Origin: Roseibacillus sp.
GTDB lineage: Bacteria > Verrucomicrobiota > Verrucomicrobiia > Verrucomicrobiales > Akkermansiaceae
Assembly: GCA_965242925.1 (NCBI GenBank)
Contig: CBDEUM010000039.1
Coordinates: 64,001 to 128,000, forward strand
Length of the DNA stretch: 64,000 nt
Direction: 5' to 3'
Notes under the pieces: generated by a model
The model's input: the letters and a program-made list of their open reading frames with translations, nothing else
The model's database searches: none
What the model was told of the DNA's origin: nothing
Position numbers and translations under genes: made by a program
Part shown: piece by piece, positions 46,353 to 59,402 of the stretch
Layout: each line of letters begins with the position of its first letter
Numbering within the stretch: the stretch's first letter is position 1

Positions 46353-49149
46353 CTAGCGCGTTTTGCGGCTGCGTGAGTTCTTGGCCGCCTCCCGCCGGAC
46401 CGCCTCCGTCTTCTGCCGGCGCGCCGCCGCCTGGGCCTCCGCCCGCGACTTGGCTTCTCCCCGCGCTCTCGCCTCCGCGGCCGCCCGCTGGGCATCTGCC
46501 TGGCGCCGGGCTTGCACGGCTGCGGCCTTCCGTTGCGCGTCCAGTTCGGCACGGCGTTGGGCATCCGCCCGCGCACGGACTGCTTCCGCCCGCCGCTGGG
46601 CGTCGATCTGGGCCTTGCGCCGGGCGTCCAGTTCAGCCCGCCTGCGGGATTCCTCCACCTTTTGACGGGCGAGGGCCTGCCCTCTGGCGTCCTCGGCCTG
46701 CTGACGCGCCATCGCCTGGCGCTTGGCTTCCGTCAACTTCTGTTCGGCCAGGGCCCGGCGTCTGGCATCCTCGGTCTTCTGCTGGGCAAGGGCACGACGC
46801 TTCGCCTCTTCGGCCTGCTGGCGGGCCAGCGCCTGCTTCCTGGCATCGGCCTCCGCCTGCTCACGGGCCAGTTCCGCTCGCTTCGCTTCAGCCTGCTTCC
46901 GCTCGGCCAGAACCCGGCGCTTGGCCTCTTCCGCCTTCCCATGAGCCAGAGCCCGCCTTCCCATGAGCCAAGGCCTGACGCGCCATTTCCTCGCGCTTTC
47001 ATCTGCCTCTGCCTGCTTCTGCTCGACCAAGGCCGAGGGCCCGGCGCTTCACCTGTGCAAGAGCCCGGCGCTTCCGCCTTCTGCTCGACCAAGAGCACGA
47101 CGCTTCACCTCCTCGGAACGCTGACGCGCCATTTCCTCGCGCTTGGCTTCCGACAGTTTCTGCTCCGCAAGAGCCCGGCGTTTGCCTCCTCAGCCTGCTT
47201 CCTCGACCAAGGCACGACGCTTCACCTCTTCCGCTTTCTGCTTCTGCTCGGCAAGAGCACGCCGCTTCCCCTCCTCATCTTTCTGCTCCGCAACGCCTCC
47301 TCAGCCTGCTTCTGCTCGACCAAGGCACGACGCTTCACCTCTCCGCTTTCTGTTCGGCAAGAGCACGCCGCTTCCCCTCCTCATCTTTCTGCTCCGCAAG
47401 AGCCCGGCGCTTGGCCTCCTCAGCCTGCTTCTGCTCGACCAAGGCACGACGCTTCACCTCTTCCCCCTTCTCACGGGCCAAGGCCTGACGTTTTCTTTCA
47501 TCTGCCTCCACCTGCTGCTGGGCCAACGCCCGGCGCTTCGCTTCCCCCGCTTTCTCTTCGTCAGCGTTCCGCCGGCGGCCCTCCCGGAGAGCAGTTGCGT
47601 TTTCACCCCCGCCAGGCCCAGGTCCCACAACTGGCCCCCGCCTTCTCAGCGATTCGCGCACCGCTGCCACTTCCTTCCCGGCCTTCTCGATCATCCGTTG
47701 TGCCTCCGCACGCTCCTTGGGCTGCAATTTCCGGTCCTGCATGCGGCGTTCCGCGGCCACCACCGCTTCGCTGGCAGCACGCAGGCTCTCCTCCGCTTTT
47801 GCCCTCCGCCGCTGCCTGTCCTCCAGGGGATTCTCCTCCTGCTGTTCTCCCGCGGTCCTCCGCCGTTGCAGATTGTTGCGCAGGGCCGCCTGGCATTCCG
47901 TCGTCGCGATGGCTTCCCGCGCGCCCTCATGTCTCCGCACCGAGGCCTCATGATGCCGGTGCCTGAGATCCCGTTTGATTTCCCTCTTGCCGGCCCGCAC
48001 GATATCGACCCGACCGAGGTCACCCGCTACCCGGCTGGGACAGACTGCGGCATTCCAGGGTGCATCGACCCGCGGAGCGAAGACGTGCAACCTGTCCTCG
48101 TGCAGACGATGATGCTGACGGTGGGCGAAGTGGTCGCGGCCGCCCCCGAAGTCGAGCTGGCAGCGACGCCCGGGCCGCCGCGCGTGCCGATTGACCCAGG
48201 CGAAGTCCGGACCCCCGCAATGCACGTGGTTTCCCCGCATCGAAAAGCGCGTTACGTTGCGGGTGTTGATGATGATGGTGATCACCGTCACCCGCGGCAC
48301 GCAGTGCGGCTGCACCGGCTCGTAGAAGTGGTCCACCGGGACAAAGTTGTAGTAGTCGGGAGACACATCGTAGGCCAGGTCGATTCCCGGATCGTAATCG
48401 TATACCTCGTCATAGAGGGTCTCGGGCGGCAGGGGTGCCCATCCCAGATAGTCGTCATTCTGGCGCCATGACACCCAGGCCGGGGCCCAGTCATCCCCCG
48501 GCACCCACACCCAGCCGTGCTCGGCGAGGAGAACCCAGCGACCGTAGTGATAGACCGCCCAGCCAAAGGGCTCGTCCGAGAGCCAGGTCCAGCCCTGGTC
48601 GGAATTCACCCAGCGGCCCCGGGTGTAGGGCCTCCAGGCCGGATCTGTCTGCAAGGTCGATGGCTGCCAAACGAATCCGTAGTCCCGGGTCTCAAACCAC
48701 TCCCCGAACCTCGAGAGCTCCGCAAAGAAGATCTGATGGTCCCCGGTATCGAGCAGCACGGCCGGGACTGTCGCCTCAATTGCCACCGCCTTTTCCTCCT
48801 CCGGAAGAAGTTCCCCATTCCGGGGTGCTTCCTCCACTACGATAGCCCGGGGCACATTCGTGAAATCCGCCGCATCGCCGGGTTCGGCCTCAATGATCCC
48901 GGCATCATCCGGCGCCCCGTCCACATCGGGATCCTCCCCTTCCAGGGCGGTGAGCGCGATCTCCAGCTGGCGACGTGCCTCCTCCAACTCCGCATCGAGG
49001 GCGGCATCCTCGCGCTCCTTCTCGAGCTGCGCGACCTTCTCCTTCAGTTTCCTTGATTCGATATCTGCCGAGAACTTCGCGAAATCACAGGCAGGTAAAA
49101 CACACCCACCAACAAGAGCCAGGGAAAGGAACAGGAAACGCTTCATCAT
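46353..49149 (-). CDS. DUF6600-like lipoprotein with a long TolA-like charged helical repeat tail; frameshifted in the repeat
   Basis: Signal peptide with Cys; Trp-rich domain LSRFGEW...YGFVWQP...WRPYTRGRW...EPFGWAVYHYGRW...GWVWVPG..WAPAWVSWR; EEAKRRALAEQK repeats span ORFs 47335..49149 and 46353..47030. Confidence 0.72.
46640..47545 (-). repeat. Degenerate 39-42-bp coding tandem repeat with about 120-bp higher-order periodicity
   Basis: gcctgcttctgctcgaccaaggcacgacgcttcacctct recurs near 47010, 47193, 47304 and 47423; ggcaagagcacgccgcttcccctcctcatctttctgctccgcaa recurs near 47250 and 47356. Confidence 0.85.
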
Positions 49150-52094: not shown

Positions 52095-53108
52095 ATGGCT
52101 GACATCATCAACAAGACCGACATTGAACTCGGGGTCGTCGCCACCCACTCCGGATGGGTGGGGGGAATCGTTCCCGATGACGACGGGAATGTCCCACGCA
52201 CCAGCGAGGGGGAACTGGTCGTTCTCGCCGAGATGAAAAAGCTCCAGGAGCTCAGTCGTGTCAAACTCGACGGCGTGCAGGTTCCCGTCATCCCCGGCAC
52301 CAGGGGTGAGGATTTCGACGAGATCTGCAACGGATTCAAGGATCTCGACCTCAAACTCTACTTCGTCCTGATGGTGGGCGGCGCCGATCCCATGAACCCC
52401 GAGGACGAGTCCGCGGTGGCGGATCAGCTCCTCCTCGGCCTGGAAGCGGCCAAGACCCACGGCGTCACTATTGTCTCTTCCACCTCCATCGAGGAGTGGA
52501 TGAGCGGCTCGCCACGCAAGGATGGCACTGACTTTGAGGCCGCCGTTGAGCAGAACGCCAGGCTCCACCACCGCTGCTACACCGAGGCCGGTCTTGCCGA
52601 TTCCTGCGTCAGTTCGTGGCACGTCGAGTTCCTGCGTCCCGGCGAGTTCGCCACCTTCACCGACCTTGGCCGCCTCTGGAAGTTCCTCCAGGCCGCCAAT
52701 TCCCTCGTCGGCAGTGATGACAAGTTCTTCAAGTCCCTCACCGATGCCGCCCACTGCGGGGACTCCACCCTCACTATTCCGGAGAACGAGGACCTCATCG
52801 CGCAGATGGGTGCGGCGGGCGAACTCGGCTGCTTCCACGCTTCCGCCATGACCACCCGGGGGTGCCTGTCCACCGACGATGGCTGGATCGGCTCCCTCCT
52901 CACCGCAGTGGCCAAGACAGGCACCCTGGAACATGTCTTCGTCGAACTCTTCCGGCACGATGACGCCGCCCTCCAGGCCCTCCGGGACCTCGATCCCGGG
53001 CATGGCATCGATACCACCGACGGACGGGACTACAACGAGTGCACTGCCGACGGTCTTGAAGACATCGCCCACCGCCTCAACAACCTCAAGGCCCGCGGCA
53101 TCCTCTAG
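52095..53108 (+). CDS. Divergent xylose-isomerase-like TIM barrel (sugar epimerase/isomerase-like)
   Basis: Metal-ligand-like pattern HVEFLR..E, DAAH, FHASA..RG, VELF reminiscent of ketose 3-epimerases. Confidence 0.6.
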   Translation: MADIINKTDIELGVVATHSGWVGGIVPDDDGNVPRTSEGELVVLAEMKKLQELSRVKLDGVQVPVIPGTRGEDFDEICNGFKDLDLKLYFVLMVGGADPMNPEDESAVADQLLLGLEAAKTHGVTIVSSTSIEEWMSGSPRKDGTDFEAAVEQNARLHHRCYTEAGLADSCVSSWHVEFLRPGEFATFTDLGRLWKFLQAANSLVGSDDKFFKSLTDAAHCGDSTLTIPENEDLIAQMGAAGELGCFHASAMTTRGCLSTDDGWIGSLLTAVAKTGTLEHVFVELFRHDDAALQALRDLDPGHGIDTTDGRDYNECTADGLEDIAHRLNNLKARGIL

Positions 53109-54448: not shown

Positions 54449-57400
54449 CTACCCCAGCAGCCTCCCAAGTTCCTTCCCGGCCTCCTCCACCCAGGCGTTT
54501 CCAGGCAGGGCATAGGGCCGGAAGGTCTCCAGGGAGCCTTCGTGCTCATTATAGAAGAGAGCGCGGTGCATGCCGAGGTTGCTTGCCGCCGGACTGTCCA
54601 CCAGGGCGGCCGAATCGTTCTGGCTCATCTGGAAAATAACCCGCATCTCGAATTCGCTCAGCGCCTTCCGGCTCAGGAAACGGTTCACATTGTTGGAGGT
54701 ATCAACCGTTGCCATCACGTGCAGCCCGTACCCCGTCCCCTCCGTCACGATTTCGTTGAGCTGCGCCCCCGGGTTGGGACCCGCATCGTCGCTGTCGAAC
54801 GAAAAATCGAAGTCATCCTCGTGCTTGAGATTCTTGAACTTCTGCAGGTTGTGGATCAGCAGGAAGACCGGCGGGTCATTGGCGGCGATCTCCTCGTCCG
54901 CCGCCCTCCGTTTCATTTCCTCGCCCAGCTCGCCCATCACACGTGGCAGATCGTTGTTTTTGACGACCTCCACCTGGTGTGGCACCGCTTCCACCACTCT
55001 CTGCAGGAACGCGGACTCGGACGACCCGGGGGTGGTTCCGTCACATACAATGAACCGGATCCCACCCTTCGCAGACTGGGCGGAAAGGGAGACCAGCGAA
55101 ACGGCCAGCATGGCCAGGGCCGCCTCCTCCCGCTGGCCGATCACGATCAGGTTGTTCCCACTCTGGCGATGGAAGGTTGCCTCCGTTGGACCCTTGATGG
55201 AGTTGGGAGAACCCAGCCAGGACCGCTTGGAGAAAGAAGATTCGACCGCCTCGGCGTGCAGGAGTCCGTGGAGTAACCCGTTCTCGCCAACATCAGCCGG
55301 AGAGTTCCCCTCGAAGACAATGGGAGTGGAACAGTCATACGAGTTCTCCTCCGCGATCTTGAGGACATGCTGAAGAGACTGATCCCGCTCTTCATCCGGC
55401 AGCCAGACCACCTGGAACGGGCTGTTGGCTTCCAGGGCACCGGCGCTGTCGTTGTAGATCCCCTCCCCCGGGCGTGTCAGCATGCGTGGGGCAGGGTTGG
55501 AGTCATCCATGATGAGATAGGCATCCGACTCATTGCACTGAAGCGCCACCCGGATGACCATCTGACCCATCGTGGTACGGGCCATGCTGTAGGCGCCGCC
55601 CAGTGTCTGTGACCCAAGCAGCACATGAATGCCGAAGGCACGGCCCTGGCGCACAATGCGATCCAGAAGGACCGAGGCATCCTGTGCGATGCGATCGTCT
55701 TCCACGAAGAGTTCCTGGAACTCGTCGATAATCAGGAGGGATCGCGGCACCGACTCGCTCCCGCCCGCCCTCTTATAGCCAGCCACGTCCTGCACCCCCA
55801 GCTTGCGGAACATGTCCCCCCGCCGCTTCAATTCCTCGTCCACCCTCTTGAGCACGCTCAGGCCGAACTCCCGGTCACTCTCGATCGCCACCACCCGCGC
55901 GTGCGGCAGACGCGCCGCCGCGTAGCATTTGAATTCCACCCCCTTCTTGAAATCCACCAGGTAGAACTCCACCTGGTCGGGGTTGCACCAGAGCGAGAGA
56001 TTCGAAATGATCACATGAAAGAGCGTCGACTTACCCGATCCCGTTTTCCCCGCAAATAGAGCGTGCTGCCGGGTTCCCTTCCCGATCGCAAGATACTGCA
56101 GCTTGGTCGCTCCAGTTCTCCCGATGGGCACTCTCAACTCATTGGTGGTGTCGCTGCTCCAGAATTCACCCTCCTTCGGAATGACGTGCTGGAAAGGCAC
56201 TTCCACCCGGTTCGCATCGACGCTGCTGGCGCCGATCTTGTGAATGAACTCGATCGCAATCTCGGGATCGGGTGCGGGGTCGAACTCCAGCGGCGTCCCG
56301 TTCTGATCGTTCGTGCCCACCAGGAAGCGATCGCCCTCGCAGCGGATGCGGATGCTGTTCTCGCGGAGAACCTCCGGCATCATCTCAGCCGGACCGCCGG
56401 TCTGCTGGTGATCCCAGTGCATCAGGGTGTAAATCCCGCAACGGGGTCCGCTCATCGCGATGCTCTGCAGGCGCTTGGCCGCCGTCTCGCTGAAGCCCGA
56501 GGGAAAGTCCGCAATGACGAGGAAGTGATACTTCTCCGCAATATTGCCCGCCTGCTCGTTGTAGTCCGTAATGGTATCGTACTCATTGCGGAGATACATC
56601 TGGATCACTTTCTCGATATGCTCGTTGAGCTCACCCAGCTTCTCCTCGATCTGCCCCCGCTGCGTCCAGATCCTCCCGTTGATCACACTGTCCTCGTAGT
56701 CAGCCAGATGCATGATCCCCGCGAAGTTTTCCCCCAGCCCAACCGGATCGATAATGGTGAAGTTCAGCTTGCCCGGCGGGGTGGTGGCCAGCAGGCGCAG
56801 GATGATGTTGTTGAGCGCCTCAAGCGCCGTTTCACGTCCAAACCCGTCAGTCTCGAAAAGCAGCGATCCGTCGTGGGGCAGTTGCAGGGCCATGGGAACC
56901 TCGATCGCTCTCGCATCCGGAAGGCTCAGGTTGAGCTCCTCTGCCAGCGTATCCCCGGCCACGGAAACCCGGCCGAAGCGCGCCACATCGTGCAATTCGG
57001 CGGAGGGCTGCCACCGCTCAAGATAACTCTGCTCCCACGGCGGGGTGAGGGGCGCCAGCGACTCCGCTATCACTCCCGCCTCCTGGTAGATCGACTGCAC
57101 CCGCGCGGTCCACTCCGCCTCCATTTCATTTCGAGCCTCCTCGTAGGTCTCTTCTGCTTCCCCCACCTCCTCATCGTGTTCCGCCTGCAGGCTGGCGATA
57201 CGGTCAGCGGCTCCCTGCTGCAATTCCTCCAGACGCCCTTCGTGGAGGGAATTTAACGGACCCACGATGCGATCGCGCATCTCATCATTCCTGGCCCGGG
57301 CGCGCTGGTATTTTTCTTCGATCCTGCCTCCGCCCTCTTCCCGCAGTTTGCTTGCAGCCTCATCGGCCTGCACCCAACGGTTCTCCCCCGCTGCTTCCTC

Positions 57401-58333
57401 GGCAGCCAGTTGCTCCTCCTCCTCCTGGAAGCGCTGGGAAATCCGCTCCGAACAGACAGCCCAGGCCCGCCTTGTCCTCTCAATCTGCTCCGCCACCGCC
57501 CCAGCCGCCGGCTCTGCTCCTCCGCCGGTGGCCAATTGCAGCAGGAAAATGAGAAGGACGGTACCCCCGGCCACCCAACCCGCAAGCGACCAGACCGCTT
57601 CTCCTCCCTCCCAGAAGTTGGAGAGGTAAACAGCGGCACCCCATCCCAGAACCAATAAAAGCCACCAGGGGAAAACGCTCAGCAATCGCGCCAGGCCGTT
57701 TTTCCTGAAGACGGCCAGCTTCTCTTCTCCCTCCGCAATCCCCTTCCGCACACGTTCCAGGAAGTCCGGTGTCTGTCCGGAGGTGTCCAACTCACCCAGC
57801 TCGAGGGATTCTCCATAGGCCGGGTTGAGCTTCTTCTGGAAACGCGGATAGCCGCGCATCGCACCACTGCTCTTCCGCTGTAACTTGTGAAGGTTCTGTT
57901 TTTCCTGCTCCAGCTCGGCATGCAACCCCTGGTACATCCCGGTCAGCTTTTCCAGAGACTGTTGCCGCGTGACCTTGTCGGTCACGGACCGGACCTGCAG
58001 CTCGGAGGCCGTCTTGCCCTTCAGTTCTTCCGCCCGCCGGGACAACAGACGCTTGCTGGCTGGAAGCGCGAGCTCAATCCACTCCACCCTCGCTGCATGA
58101 CGGGTTTCGGCGTGTTCCTTCTCGTCAGCCGAACGAGCCTCCGCCGTCGTGATGGCTGTCTCCAGCAGTTCCTTTTCCTTCTCCCCTCCCTGCTCAAAGG
58201 CCCGCTTGGCGGCAAAGCTCCTGGTCCGCCGCAGCTTGGCAGCCGCCTCCTCGCGCTCCGAAAACTCCCCGATCGCCCCCGCCAGTCCATTGGCGAGTTC
58301 CAATCCTCTACTGACTCCAAGTCTAGTCCTCAC
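54449..58333 (-). CDS. Membrane-anchored FtsK/SpoIIIE-family ATPase, EssC/EccC-like
   Basis: Coiled coil, two TMs (about aa 216-268), coiled coil, then three RecA-like units; the middle one has Walker A GKTGSGKST (56050-56024), YLVDFKKGVEF, Walker B LLIIDEFQ and RQGRAFGIHVLLGSQ. Confidence 0.9.
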   Translation of the reverse strand: MRTRLGVSRGLELANGLAGAIGEFSEREEAAAKLRRTRSFAAKRAFEQGGEKEKELLETAITTAEARSADEKEHAETRHAARVEWIELALPASKRLLSRRAEELKGKTASELQVRSVTDKVTRQQSLEKLTGMYQGLHAELEQEKQNLHKLQRKSSGAMRGYPRFQKKLNPAYGESLELGELDTSGQTPDFLERVRKGIAEGEEKLAVFRKNGLARLLSVFPWWLLLVLGWGAAVYLSNFWEGGEAVWSLAGWVAGGTVLLIFLLQLATGGGAEPAAGAVAEQIERTRRAWAVCSERISQRFQEEEEQLAAEEAAGENRWVQADEAASKLREEGGGRIEEKYQRARARNDEMRDRIVGPLNSLHEGRLEELQQGAADRIASLQAEHDEEVGEAEETYEEARNEMEAEWTARVQSIYQEAGVIAESLAPLTPPWEQSYLERWQPSAELHDVARFGRVSVAGDTLAEELNLSLPDARAIEVPMALQLPHDGSLLFETDGFGRETALEALNNIILRLLATTPPGKLNFTIIDPVGLGENFAGIMHLADYEDSVINGRIWTQRGQIEEKLGELNEHIEKVIQMYLRNEYDTITDYNEQAGNIAEKYHFLVIADFPSGFSETAAKRLQSIAMSGPRCGIYTLMHWDHQQTGGPAEMMPEVLRENSIRIRCEGDRFLVGTNDQNGTPLEFDPAPDPEIAIEFIHKIGASSVDANRVEVPFQHVIPKEGEFWSSDTTNELRVPIGRTGATKLQYLAIGKGTRQHALFAGKTGSGKSTLFHVIISNLSLWCNPDQVEFYLVDFKKGVEFKCYAAARLPHARVVAIESDREFGLSVLKRVDEELKRRGDMFRKLGVQDVAGYKRAGGSESVPRSLLIIDEFQELFVEDDRIAQDASVLLDRIVRQGRAFGIHVLLGSQTLGGAYSMARTTMGQMVIRVALQCNESDAYLIMDDSNPAPRMLTRPGEGIYNDSAGALEANSPFQVVWLPDEERDQSLQHVLKIAEENSYDCSTPIVFEGNSPADVGENGLLHGLLHAEAVESSFSKRSWLGSPNSIKGPTEATFHRQSGNNLIVIGQREEAALAMLAVSLVSLSAQSAKGGIRFIVCDGTTPGSSESAFLQRVVEAVPHQVEVVKNNDLPRVMGELGEEMKRRAADEEIAANDPPVFLLIHNLQKFKNLKHEDDFDFSFDSDDAGPNPGAQLNEIVTEGTGYGLHVMATVDTSNNVNRFLSRKALSEFEMRVIFQMSQNDSAALVDSPAASNLGMHRALFYNEHEGSLETFRPYALPGNAWVEEAGKELGRLLG

Positions 58334-58538
58334 AATCGCGCCGGGCTCTGGTTACAATCTTGTCGATCTCCTCGATCACCCGGATGGCTGCCGAGATATC
58401 GTCGGGAAGCGTTTCAATAAAGTCCTTTTCGAACTCTCTCTGCCTGCTGTCACGCCAATGGGCCTTCACCTGGTCCCAGCTCTGCAGGATGGCCTTGGTG
58501 GACTTGGTCAGTTTCACCGCACTCGCTCTCGCGCTCAT
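58323..58538 (-). CDS. 71-aa WXG100-like helical protein (W-R-D)
   Basis: HWRDSRQREFEKDF aligns by eye with TWKDQENQKFAEEF of the 59130 protein; ATGA-coupled to the upstream gene and overlaps the ATPase start by 11 bp. Confidence 0.78.
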   Translation of the reverse strand: MSARASAVKLTKSTKAILQSWDQVKAHWRDSRQREFEKDFIETLPDDISAAIRVIEEIDKIVTRARRDCED

Positions 58539-59104
58539 GCCGCCCCCCCTTCCTCTGCAGCGGACCCCTTCTCCGCCCTCTCCTCTTCCTTCTCTGCCCC
58601 CGCGTCCGGTCCATCGCTCCCTCCGCCCTCCGACGCGATGCGGGTGTAATCGTCGAGGGTCCGCTCCGCCTGCGCAAGGGAGGAGACCGCCTTGGGCAGA
58701 TCATGGGACGCAAAGTGCTGCATGCCATCCAGCTTCTTGATCAGAGGCTCGACCAGACTATCGTAATTGCGAATCCACTTCTGCAGCGCCTTGGCCCGCT
58801 CCTCGGTCTCCCTGACCATCCGCCGGAGCCGCGTAACCGCCATCTGCCGTGCCGCACTGTGGCTTGTCATGGCGCTGAGACGCGAGGTGAACAACTCGGC
58901 CTCCGCCTGCTCCAGTTGCTTGCGCAGACGTTTGAGCTGCCCACCCCAGTAGGCCCGTTGATCCACCTGCAGCCACGTCCGCATGCGGCGCACTTCGTCA
59001 CGCACCTCGTCCAGGGCATTCCCCACCGAGCCCATGTAGATGATAAGGCTCGAGCGGAATGAAGTGAGTGCGTCAACTGATGTGACCTTGGCCTGCCGGT
59101 CCAT
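58535..59104 (-). CDS. 189-aa all-helical protein, WXG100-associated
   Basis: Amphipathic heptads, YWGG turn, C-terminal LAQAERTLDDY resembling LRKAQRIEEY of the WXG100 protein, acidic tail; coupled within the operon. Confidence 0.78.
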   Translation of the reverse strand: MDRQAKVTSVDALTSFRSSLIIYMGSVGNALDEVRDEVRRMRTWLQVDQRAYWGGQLKRLRKQLEQAEAELFTSRLSAMTSHSAARQMAVTRLRRMVRETEERAKALQKWIRNYDSLVEPLIKKLDGMQHFASHDLPKAVSSLAQAERTLDDYTRIASEGGGSDGPDAGAEKEEERAEKGSAAEEGGAA

Positions 59105-59129
59105 GCAAAAACGGGGGGTGACAATCTGC

Positions 59130-59402
59130 CTAGCGCTGGTCGAGGTATTCCTCGATCCGCTGCGCCTTGCGCAACAGGAAGGGTGTATGTTTCTCGGAGA
59201 TCTCGATAAACTTCTTCAGTGCCTTCATCGTTCCGACAAACTCTTCCGCGAATTTCTGGTTCTCCTGGTCCTTCCAGGTATCCCCCAGGGCAGTGAACCG
59301 GGACTGCAGGGACGATGCCTTCACCTGGAGTTCGTCATTGAATCGTTTCAGTTCCTTGGCGAACCGCCGGACTTCATCCGGATCCATTATTGCCTGGGAC
59401 AT
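59130..59402 (-). CDS. WXG100-family (ESAT-6-like) protein, W-K-D variant
   Basis: 90 aa from ATG 59402: MDPDEVRRFAKEL N-terminus, central TWKD turn followed by F..EF, helix-turn-helix length, C-terminal LRKAQRIEEY; upstream of an FtsK ATPase. Confidence 0.88.
   Translation of the reverse strand: MSQAIMDPDEVRRFAKELKRFNDELQVKASSLQSRFTALGDTWKDQENQKFAEEFVGTMKALKKFIEISEKHTPFLLRKAQRIEEYLDQR

Follow-up and report, generated by a model that had tools for sequence, protein, structure and literature searches.

An apparently membrane-anchored, effector-free form of a described WXG100/FtsK-type ATPase module in a Roseibacillus-like bacterium

Introduction

The WXG100 family is known chiefly for its export substrates. 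Every accepted subtype of type VII secretion systems (T7SS) has further components, with a minimum of five in T7SSd (in the part of PMC11217815 used here). EssC requires all four of its ATPase domains, and D1 is the module required for export (PMC13355648, cited in part). In T7SSb, the exported rod consists of a long helical domain and two small hairpins, according to the passages of PMC10801868 drawn on here. Toxin export in T7SSb depends on that of EsxA. According to a 2023 review, no experiment demonstrates export by a Gram-negative WXG/FtsK module, and it is still unconfirmed that such pairs are true secretion systems (PMC10765036).

The closest described group is that of Zhang et al. 2012, where one table note (PMC3482391, Table 1 note 6) lists a solo WXG gene with a three-module, middle-active ATPase for verrucomicrobia and planctomycetes. 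An EssC-like module without transmembrane (TM) helices has moreover been tied to TerY-P / type III-A CoCoNuT and type IV restriction loci (Bell et al. 2024; PMC11090510, in the sections compared here). We found no functional study of the module in PVC bacteria in the literature searched. Here we analysed a window of 64,000 nucleotides (the whole stretch of DNA examined) in which an initial annotation had described a minimal T7SS-like operon and implied its novelty. That implication was not supported: the module, including the three-domain, middle-active ATPase in verrucomicrobia and planctomycetes, was already reported in the cited note of Zhang et al. 2012, and the locus itself is therefore no surprise.

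Results

The four-gene cassette was confirmed, and its coordinates and junctions (a 25-bp gap between A and B, an ATGA overlap between B and C, an 11-bp overlap between C and D) were reproduced as first described:

A: 59402-59130, minus strand, 90 aa
B: 59104-58535, minus strand, 189 aa; two predicted helices of about 75-80 residues each, forming one long hairpin, then a low-complexity tail of about 30 aa
C: 58538-58323, minus strand, 71 aa; a putative shortened helical protein resembling WXG100, bearing WxD (W28-R-D30) and a Cys close to its end
D: 58333-54449, minus strand, 1294 aa, GTG start; a predicted helical N-region of about 210 aa, a predicted TM hairpin (about 217-268), a predicted helical stalk of about 155 aa and three ATPase modules
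D module 1: degenerate, D0/DUF-like
D module 2: catalytic, D1-like; Walker A at 762, Walker B LLIIDE
D module 3: degenerate, D2-like
One flank: PVC-type heme CxxCH protein (TIGR02604/TIGR02603 above cut-off)
Other flank: PQQ-type propeller

A gene-order survey, which the initial annotation had proposed, recovered A-B-C-D in 66 of the 77 related loci fetched, the other 11 being interrupted by contig ends. All four genes are under purifying selection: against five relatives, dN/dS was 0.015-0.043 for A, 0.08-0.28 for B, 0.05-0.38 for C and 0.09-0.19 for D. Given this recurring order and the low dN/dS, the cassette is not a chance arrangement. The observation that no toxin or immunity gene is adjacent also stood, the flanks being the heme CxxCH protein and the propeller. 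Of the "three WXG100-like genes" announced, A is one and C is weakly so, while B, twice the WXG100 length and without a family match, is not. A, B and C have no hydrophobic segment fit for a signal peptide or TM helix (maximum hydropathy 0.36-0.92). A promoter/terminator scan of the cassette gave an outcome near chance. Marine RNA runs from four studies, one run apiece, yielded contigs over parts of the cassette, A-B included; however, one of these runs spans all 30 bins, so that DNA carry-over is suspected, and contigs give no ranking of expression. The RNA coverage does not count as evidence here.

By its sequence, A is assigned to the WXG100 helical hairpins of the HP0062 type. It scores 39.1 bits against PF06013 (cut-off 27.3, E 9e-10) and 30.5 against TIGR03930, below the cut-off of 44.85, and its closest solved relative is HP0062 (3fx7, E 1e-7). 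WxD (W43-K-D45) takes the place of WxG, and is kept in 90 of 90 A homologues at the loci matched. The family has a mean column identity of 81%, with I83, E84, Y86, L87 and Q89 conserved. The C-terminal end contains IEEYL and A ends RKAQRIEEYLDQR; the printed EsxB alignment halts before the hydrophobic-xxx-D/E export motif.

D is predicted to be a two-TM EccC/EssC-like ATPase of three modules, the middle one alone catalytic, and the initial reading of a multi-domain, EssC-like FtsK-family ATPase with two TMs was upheld. Its two hydrophobic segments lie near residues 217-235 and 247-268, a TM call made by hydropathy only; two TMs separated by a short loop are likewise predicted in 54 of 65 near relatives and among the planctomycete-sample ATPases in 13 of 14. 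Mutual information over the first ~470 residues (182 sequences) revealed no antiparallel pattern around the hairpin. D matches PF01580, and GKTGSGKS at 762 is the sole Walker A within an ATPase module; together with IDEFQE it is near-invariant across 56 D sequences. The top Foldseek match is EccC (4nh0, E 3e-31), and scores against TIGR03924/3925/3928 are far under the cut-offs. The likeness to EccC/EssC does not extend to all four modules, since the structure model, made of the last 870 residues, contains three. Module 1, which found no solved relative by sequence when searched by itself, aligns to the DUF of EccC3/EccC5 (Z 15-16), module 2 scores best against D1 of EccC/EccC5 and module 3 matches D2 weakly. 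As the YukB DUF chain 9qks aligned structurally to module 3 and not to module 1, the naming D0-D1-D2 is likely but not certain.

The AlphaFold2 model of B (pLDDT 86.7, helices 4-76 and 81-160) is a plain two-helix hairpin. As a test of an LXG-like fold, fold searches yielded generic coiled coils: Foldseek returned nothing at E<=0.001, and the best VIA match had Z 11.3, all being generic coiled coils, with LXG/PPE chains absent among the matches listed, an absence that does not speak against such a fold. B has no effector domain, and neither B nor 54 of its homologues matched a Pfam family. At E<=0.001 there are 2713 representative homologues, and the best 150 of these 2713 measure 112-265 aa; Y153 is invariant and L150 almost invariant in the family. 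In three planctomycete-sample genomes, B is spanned by extremely long frames, which turned out to be overlapping frames and not fusions.

W21, W28, D30 and C69 are invariant in 58 members of the C family, seven of which match PF06013 weakly (best E 9e-4), and a Cys lies within the last four residues of C in 85 of 92 loci. Profile comparisons were not significant between A and C (E 0.03, probability 1.7%) or between A and B (E 0.12). A complex prediction of A + C + B(1-160), with B as partner, scored 0.79 and a control with A replaced scored 0.78; the predicted A/B/C complex thus counts neither for nor against binding.

The presumption of a diderm PVC host was borne out: LpxC and Omp85 are present and the nearest related loci are from Roseibacillus/Verrucomicrobiales, which places the host as an LPS diderm PVC bacterium close to marine Roseibacillus. 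In this 89.9% complete genome, a suggested search for EssB/YukC, EsaB/YukD, EsaA, EccB and EccD found no match, the positive controls being detected in B. subtilis or C. glutamicum. The LXG domain PF04740 was likewise not found in the genome, nor in the 54 B homologues, in agreement with the idea of a stand-alone cassette without LXG. The cassette is single-copy, with no paralogue of A, B or C in the genome, which also encodes a separate single-module FtsK-type protein.

In two genera, the cassette is carried by 16 of 18 and by 21 of 24 genomes, respectively. Its GC3 resembles that of neighbour genes, and its flanks are conserved within the genus; across lineages they are varied housekeeping genes, none of them conserved. 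In eight of eight genomes with a split cassette, A and D are retained elsewhere. Thus, the PVC form looks chromosomally domesticated and genus-stable. Cassette-type matches were found in 10 of 301 Verrucomicrobiota genomes, a patchy occurrence that points to a dispensable role, and the cassette tree departs in part from family ranks. B was detected in 30 of 251 genomes, with one match each. A 420-aa downstream gene clustering with D was rejected: it is a halogenase-like flavoprotein joined through one read-through ORF.

Discussion

The sequence comparison places the cassette in the solo WXG plus three-module YueA-like ATPase group, as outlined in Table 1 note 6 of Zhang et al. 2012. Common to both are a solo WXG next to the ATPase and three HerA/FtsK domains of which the middle one alone is active, and the host belongs to one of the diderm lineages named there (verrucomicrobia). 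That text calls the group "mobile versions of T7SS", whereas the PVC form looks genus-stable and domesticated; its stability within genera, native GC3 and genus-conserved flanks stand beside a patchy presence in the phylum and a partly incongruent tree. The note itself (PMC3482391) does not mention a TM hairpin, B or C. What this analysis adds is that the PVC form is apparently membrane-anchored, effector-free and domesticated in appearance, with a distant TM-less sister, situated in TerY-P islands, bearing a nuclease in the B slot; the gene order or the TM-bearing form may be present already in the supplements to Zhang 2012 and to Bell 2024.

The cassette is not a canonical T7SSa or T7SSb, beside which PMC11217815 distinguishes the subtypes T7SSc-j. 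Like them, it combines a WXG100 protein with a predicted two-TM FtsK-family motor of inactive D0, active D1 and degenerate D2, and long helical B with two small helical partners recalls the LXG-Lap-Lap arrangement of T7SSb. However, D has three ATPase modules and EccC/EssC four (D0-D3), about 365 residues of predicted helical arms surround its TM hairpin without FHA, none of five accessory proteins was found, A carries WxD and not WxG, and the host is an LPS diderm. Unlike T7SSb LXG-Lap substrates, the cassette has no LXG match, toxin or immunity gene; a C-terminal toxin with adjacent immunity gene of the LXG toxin-Lap type is absent for B at the locus. The H. pylori HP0062 cluster is similar in WRD/WKD rather than WxG, in its LPS diderm host and in a linked FtsK-type ATPase (HP0066, likened by description), but its reported members include an HNH-type nuclease and a homologue of DnaK.

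As far as the compared sections of PMC11090510 go, the TM-less sister system (examples L079 and L080) has in common with the cassette an ATPase of three modules with a long coiled coil at its N-terminus, a pair of WXG100-type proteins and the same gene order (WXG, long hairpin, short hairpin, ATPase). Its ATPase has no TM (no hydropathy >1.4 in L079/L080), whereas D has two; its long hairpin carries a fused D...ExK nuclease, whereas B ends in a short low-complexity tail; a small acidic DNA-mimic-like gene follows its hairpin-nuclease, whereas C comes directly after B; and it sits between vWA genes, whereas the window has a heme protein and a propeller in place of vWA/kinase flanks. Profile comparison gave no significant match for B against the L079 hairpin-nuclease (E 0.046, probability 1.2%) or for C against the gene in the corresponding position (E 0.33), so that any homology of B and C with genes of the sister would have to be argued from their position, their helicity and a short motif at the end. 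That the three-module motor of the sister has no TM suggests that this family can work without a membrane pore.

Our preferred reading, which we consider evenly balanced, is that D exports the A/B/C helical bundle itself into the periplasm for an envelope role. By family resemblance, D would form a ring anchored in the inner membrane by the TM hairpin; both helical arms and all three ATPase modules would lie on the cytoplasmic side, ATP being hydrolysed by the middle module alone, as by EssC D1. By analogy, the folded substrates might be an A dimer and a rod in which the long hairpin B is joined by the short hairpins C and A, recognised through their WxD turns and a shared C-terminal L/I-x-x-Y helix motif and pushed through the inner membrane to the periplasm. 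Most speculatively, as no cargo, immunity gene or outer-membrane channel accompanies the cassette, the bundle would itself be the product and could bind membranes or form a periplasmic polymer in the envelope rather than kill neighbours. In favour of export are a motor that is EccC/EssC-like by sequence and fold with Walker motifs intact solely in its D1-like module, a predicted TM hairpin shared by most relatives, the lack of signal peptides and TM segments in A, B and C, parts that stay together genetically (66/77; 8/8), domestication (single copy, genus-stable, native GC3) and the T7SSb rod precedent (in the cited portion of PMC10801868). Against it are three modules instead of four, none of the five accessory proteins sought, WxD, a B without LXG match, the TM-less sister motor, the lack of a Gram-negative precedent and the patchy 10/301 occurrence.

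Alternatively, A, B and C might form a polymer on the cytoplasmic face that repairs or remodels the inner membrane like PspA/ESCRT-III, D being a tethered ATPase that assembles or strips it without export. The long amphipathic-type hairpin B without cargo, the effector-free, single-copy and strongly conserved cassette and a sister motor acting without a pore would all suit such a role. We consider it unlikely, given that ESCRT-III chains approach B at Z 9.7-10.5 only, equal to unrelated coiled coils, and that A is a true WXG100 protein, from a family known chiefly for export substrates.

The patchy distribution would also be compatible with an anti-phage or stress-triggered defence in which a module descended from the TerY-P/CoCoNuT-linked version damages the membrane and so kills the cell or brings it to arrest. 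Two of nine non-self Verrucomicrobiota matches are the TM-less hairpin-nuclease form, one TM-less locus being surrounded by genes for vWA, PP2C, kinase and SF1-helicase proteins and preceded upstream by a methyltransferase, and PMC11090510, in the part cited, ties that form to type IV restriction loci. The PVC form, however, has no nuclease, is about 10 substitutions per site away and is genus-stable, not strain-variable. Among 84 hand-picked neighbour proteins (42 + 42) of the TM-bearing form, no recognised defence gene was seen, the sole exception being an apparent toxin-antitoxin pair in L081, judged by eye. PADLOC was silent on A, B and C and matched D with generic FtsK-type models alone, over the middle module. 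We hold a defence role to be quite unlikely.

Very unlikely in our view is full secretion, in which the A/B/C rod would carry or pilot unlinked cargo such as toxins or enzymes and the route would be completed by a partner in the outer membrane that is likewise unlinked. Its appeal lies in the sister's B slot (a hairpin fused to a D...ExK nuclease, then a small acidic protein), in the dependence of T7SSb toxins on EsxA export and, as a lead only, in a 353-aa Atlas cluster with B-like features and an Imm33-like domain in 64% of its members (score 0.82). But the host genome has no A/B/C paralogue, each of the 30 positive genomes among 251 has a single B match, no longer B fusion occurs in 8000 candidates (a weak test) or in the best 150 of 2713 homologues, and no flanking gene is conserved across lineages. 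That D is an FtsK/coupling-protein-like DNA translocase with A/B/C as accessory factors is barely plausible: taken singly, D modules reach Z 23-24 against FtsK and TcpA, level with EccC, but the three-module chain, unlike a single motor, fits EccC/EssC far better (Foldseek E 3e-31 vs 1e-10), D has no FtsK gamma, alpha or 4TM Pfam match, the host has its separate FtsK-type protein and the scanned flanks hold no relaxase or T4SS genes.

Periplasmic export of the bundle can be extended to a broader scenario, possible but doubtful, in which the PVC form would be the smallest type VII translocase that works and would have a lineage-core envelope role. One membrane protein without accessory subunits would pump a folded A/B/C rod, addressed by WxD and L/I-x-x-Y, across the inner membrane of an LPS diderm. 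The PVC form would have arisen from, or be ancestral to, the TM-less nuclease-bearing defence form, the TM hairpin and the cargo having been gained or lost on the way, and the conserved terminal Cys of C might be oxidised or serve as an anchor after export.

To conclude, the cassette is the cleanest test case for Gram-negative WXG100/FtsK secretion: it is single-copy, lacks paralogues and accessory genes, and is found whole in the majority of genomes from two genera. Export by the cassette would mean that a single ATPase is enough for type VII translocation and that LPS diderms have type VII export; otherwise, the WXG100/EssC pair would have a second, non-secretory job.

Results

Anatomy of the locus and of its host

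The lengths and junctions of the four open reading frames, checked in the window, agree with the initial annotation. The cassette and its immediate neighbours are as follows:

59130..59402 (-): A, 90 aa, WXG100 protein
58535..59104 (-): B, 189 aa, predicted helical hairpin
58323..58538 (-): C, 71 aa, truncated WXG-like protein
54449..58333 (-): D, 1294 aa, three-module ATPase
upstream of the cassette: PVC-type heme-binding CxxCH protein
downstream of the cassette: PQQ-type propeller

GC and GC3 of the cassette are like those of neighbouring genes. A 604-aa lipoprotein-like ORF of the window (47335-49149, -), with a Trp/Pro-rich centre and a charged, repetitive C-terminal helix, shows up as an anomaly in GC and skew at 44-48 kb. 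An acidic 337-aa ORF (52095-53108, +), with no match in Pfam or NCBIfam, stays close to the cassette in about 13 loci of the Roseibacillus type.

The host genome (4.58 Mb, 89.9% complete) encodes LpxC and Omp85, and the host is therefore an LPS diderm, as had been presumed. EssB, EsaA, EccB and EccD, which the initial annotation had not recognised at the locus, were not found genome-wide either: a search of this 89.9% complete genome for YukC/EssB, YukD/EsaB, EccB, EsaA, EccD and LXG gave no match, and the positive controls were detected. Family HMMs revealed no second copy of A, B or C in the genome, and the single notable relative of D is a single-module FtsK-type frame.

The small proteins

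A scores above the Pfam cut-off for WXG100 and, among solved structures, is closest to H. pylori HP0062. The protein shows WxD in 90/90 loci, and its dN/dS of 0.015-0.043 reflects very strong conservation. C, a WXG-like protein of truncated length, also carries a WxD, and in 85/92 loci a Cys lies close to its C terminus. B has no family match; it is confidently predicted to form a single long hairpin (helices 4-76 and 81-160) followed by a disordered tail, of median length 29 residues in 93 loci and enriched in A, P, E, G and S. The description of three WXG100-like genes holds for A, applies only weakly to C and does not extend to B. The last helix ends in L/I-x-x-Y in both A (89/90 loci) and B (93/94), counts taken from loci related by descent and, for B, with a permissive pattern scored without a shuffled control. 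In the alignments, neither Y86 of A nor Y153 of B varies.

The ATPase

From its N terminus, D comprises a helical region, a pair of hydrophobic segments joined by a short loop, a helical stalk and, last, three modules of the RecA type. Among 65 relatives, 54 have two hydrophobic segments, 10 have one and one has none. EccC is the top Foldseek match of D (E 3e-31). Module 1 aligns with the DUF of EccC3/EccC5 (Z 15-16), although the YukB DUF was aligned to module 3 instead; the Walker motifs of module 2 are intact, its highest score is against D1, and module 3 weakly resembles D2. From these matches, D is most simply an EccC/EssC protein without its last module. In EssC, export is reported to need Walker motifs in D1 only, although the protein cannot do without any of its four domains (PMC13355648).

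Gene order and distribution

The four-gene order is conserved: among the best 77 of at least 526 relatives, 66 loci have A-B-C-D in order on one strand, and the remaining 11 begin at a contig end inside the cassette. The closest of these loci carry the labels Roseibacillus, Akkermansiaceae or Verrucomicrobiales (D identity 75-93%), and the D tree places the window's protein inside this clade. Which genes flank the cassette depends on the lineage; in a scan of 84 hand-picked neighbours, most had metabolic or housekeeping roles. In one locus, D is directly followed by what looks by eye like an addiction-module antitoxin paired with a ParE-like toxin (L081:11783-12327). D reads in one frame into a downstream halogenase-like gene in L059:2314-7464 and is in two frames in L053:7000-10899 and L025; these anomalies are either assembly errors or real breaks.

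In even samples, A occurs in 10/301 Verrucomicrobiota genomes and in 44/201 genomes of the host's family (Akkermansiaceae), with 16/18, 21/24, 5/24 and 1/1 in four genera and none in 14 others. D is present in 26/31 genomes of the second of these genera. In the phylum sampled around one locus with a planctomycete label, B was found in 30/251 genomes, with one match each; 20 of these 30 loci were fetched, of which 14 have the full order and six are split. The split loci (L095, L098, L099, L100, L105, L106, L084 and L086) retain B by itself, B with C, or A-B-C but not D. A genome-wide lookup covering A and D located both elsewhere in all eight genomes, namely these six and two verrucomicrobial ones. 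A Ser/Thr kinase gene immediately follows C in three split loci (L086:1619-2683, L098:7173-8459 and L106:7785-9041), being Pfam-confirmed in the first two and similar to that of L098 in the third.

The D tree, a quick search with SH-aLRT only and long-branch warnings, runs from planctomycetes through a lentisphaera to verrucomicrobia; it leaves the host family's two genera unjoined, and sequences from Chthoniobacterales fall near Roseibacillus. In three of five computable pairs, dS of D is close to that of the flanking propeller, and it is about twice as high in the other two. Together with the genus-level spread, these sequence comparisons indicate inheritance that is largely vertical inside a genus, and loss or old transfer at higher ranks. 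Nine records filed under Bifidobacteriaceae, Chitinophaga or Akkermansia muciniphila (L022, L051, L057, L059, L063, L069, L073, L041 and L056) have ATPases that fall inside the verrucomicrobial group, and in most of them the flanking genes are of verrucomicrobial type as well (HemN-like upstream, halogenase-like downstream); they are probably mislabelled assemblies and not monoderm hosts.

A sister form without transmembrane segments

Two of the nine non-self Verrucomicrobiota hits differ from the TM-bearing cassette:

L079:4713-17502: sister cassette, behind vWA genes
L080:5272-12013: sister cassette, behind vWA genes

Their order is vWA, WXG, hairpin-nuclease, acidic protein (110-132 aa), short helical protein and TM-less ATPase, and the hairpin (436-442 aa) is fused to a D...EVK nuclease-like domain. 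L079 continues with vWA-like, PP2C and kinase genes and an SF1 helicase (1168 aa) matching PADLOC MkoA models, and has an Eco57I-type methyltransferase upstream. The L080 contig ends soon past the ATPase; transposase-like genes were seen by eye upstream. This form matches a module described by Bell et al. 2024 (PMC11090510) and is separated from the TM-bearing clade by about 10 substitutions per site in the D tree. Its hairpin ends in L-x-x-Y immediately before the nuclease, as does the last helix of B, but profile comparison of the two was not significant; we infer that B is its cargo-free counterpart. An ESM Atlas cluster (353 aa, 433 members, mostly Planctomycetota) scores 0.82 for B-like features, and 64% of its members contain an Imm33-like domain; it may represent a B-type fusion and is to be taken as a lead only.

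Discussion

The cassette is real, well conserved and belongs to an already described group of putative systems. Zhang et al. 2012 (PMC3482391) describe solo WXG proteins in planctomycetes, verrucomicrobia and other diderm lineages, accompanied by a distinct YueA-like ATPase of three domains of which the middle one is active, and call such solo-WXG systems mobile T7SS versions. WxG plus FtsK in H. pylori was regarded as a minimal T7SS set (Uchiyama et al. 2016, PMC4978471), and Boardman et al. 2023 (PMC10765036) treat Gram-negative WXG/FtsK pairs as unconfirmed secretion systems. Garrett et al. 2024 (PMC11217815) list T7SSc-j for Gram-positive phyla only, and T7SS is absent from LPS diderms according to PMC3796261. 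In its anatomy, the cassette resembles a type VII motor; it falls outside T7SSa/b in domain number, accessory parts and motif.

The analysis shows its anatomy, selection on its genes and their joint retention, and no accessory parts or cargo were found. By comparison with its family, D would assemble as an inner-membrane ring driven by the middle module. By analogy with LXG-Lap-Lap rods (PMC10801868), A (about 40 residues per helix) and C (30-40) could stack along the 76-residue helices of B to make the substrate. Since the cassette is linked to neither a toxin nor an immunity gene nor an outer-membrane partner, we favor a reading in which the A/B/C bundle is exported to the periplasm and serves the envelope there, to which we give an even chance. 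Against it, D has three modules and not four, no accessory proteins were found, WxG is absent, and the TM-less sister shows that the motor does not have to act as a pore. Remodelling of the membrane from the cytoplasmic side is unlikely, and a defence function slightly more so. That A/B/C would be a carrier for unlinked cargo is improbable, and DNA translocation by D very improbable.

Other papers or supplements may already describe the split between a domesticated, cargo-free, TM-bearing PVC form and a TM-less nuclease form, of which we found no account in the literature searched.
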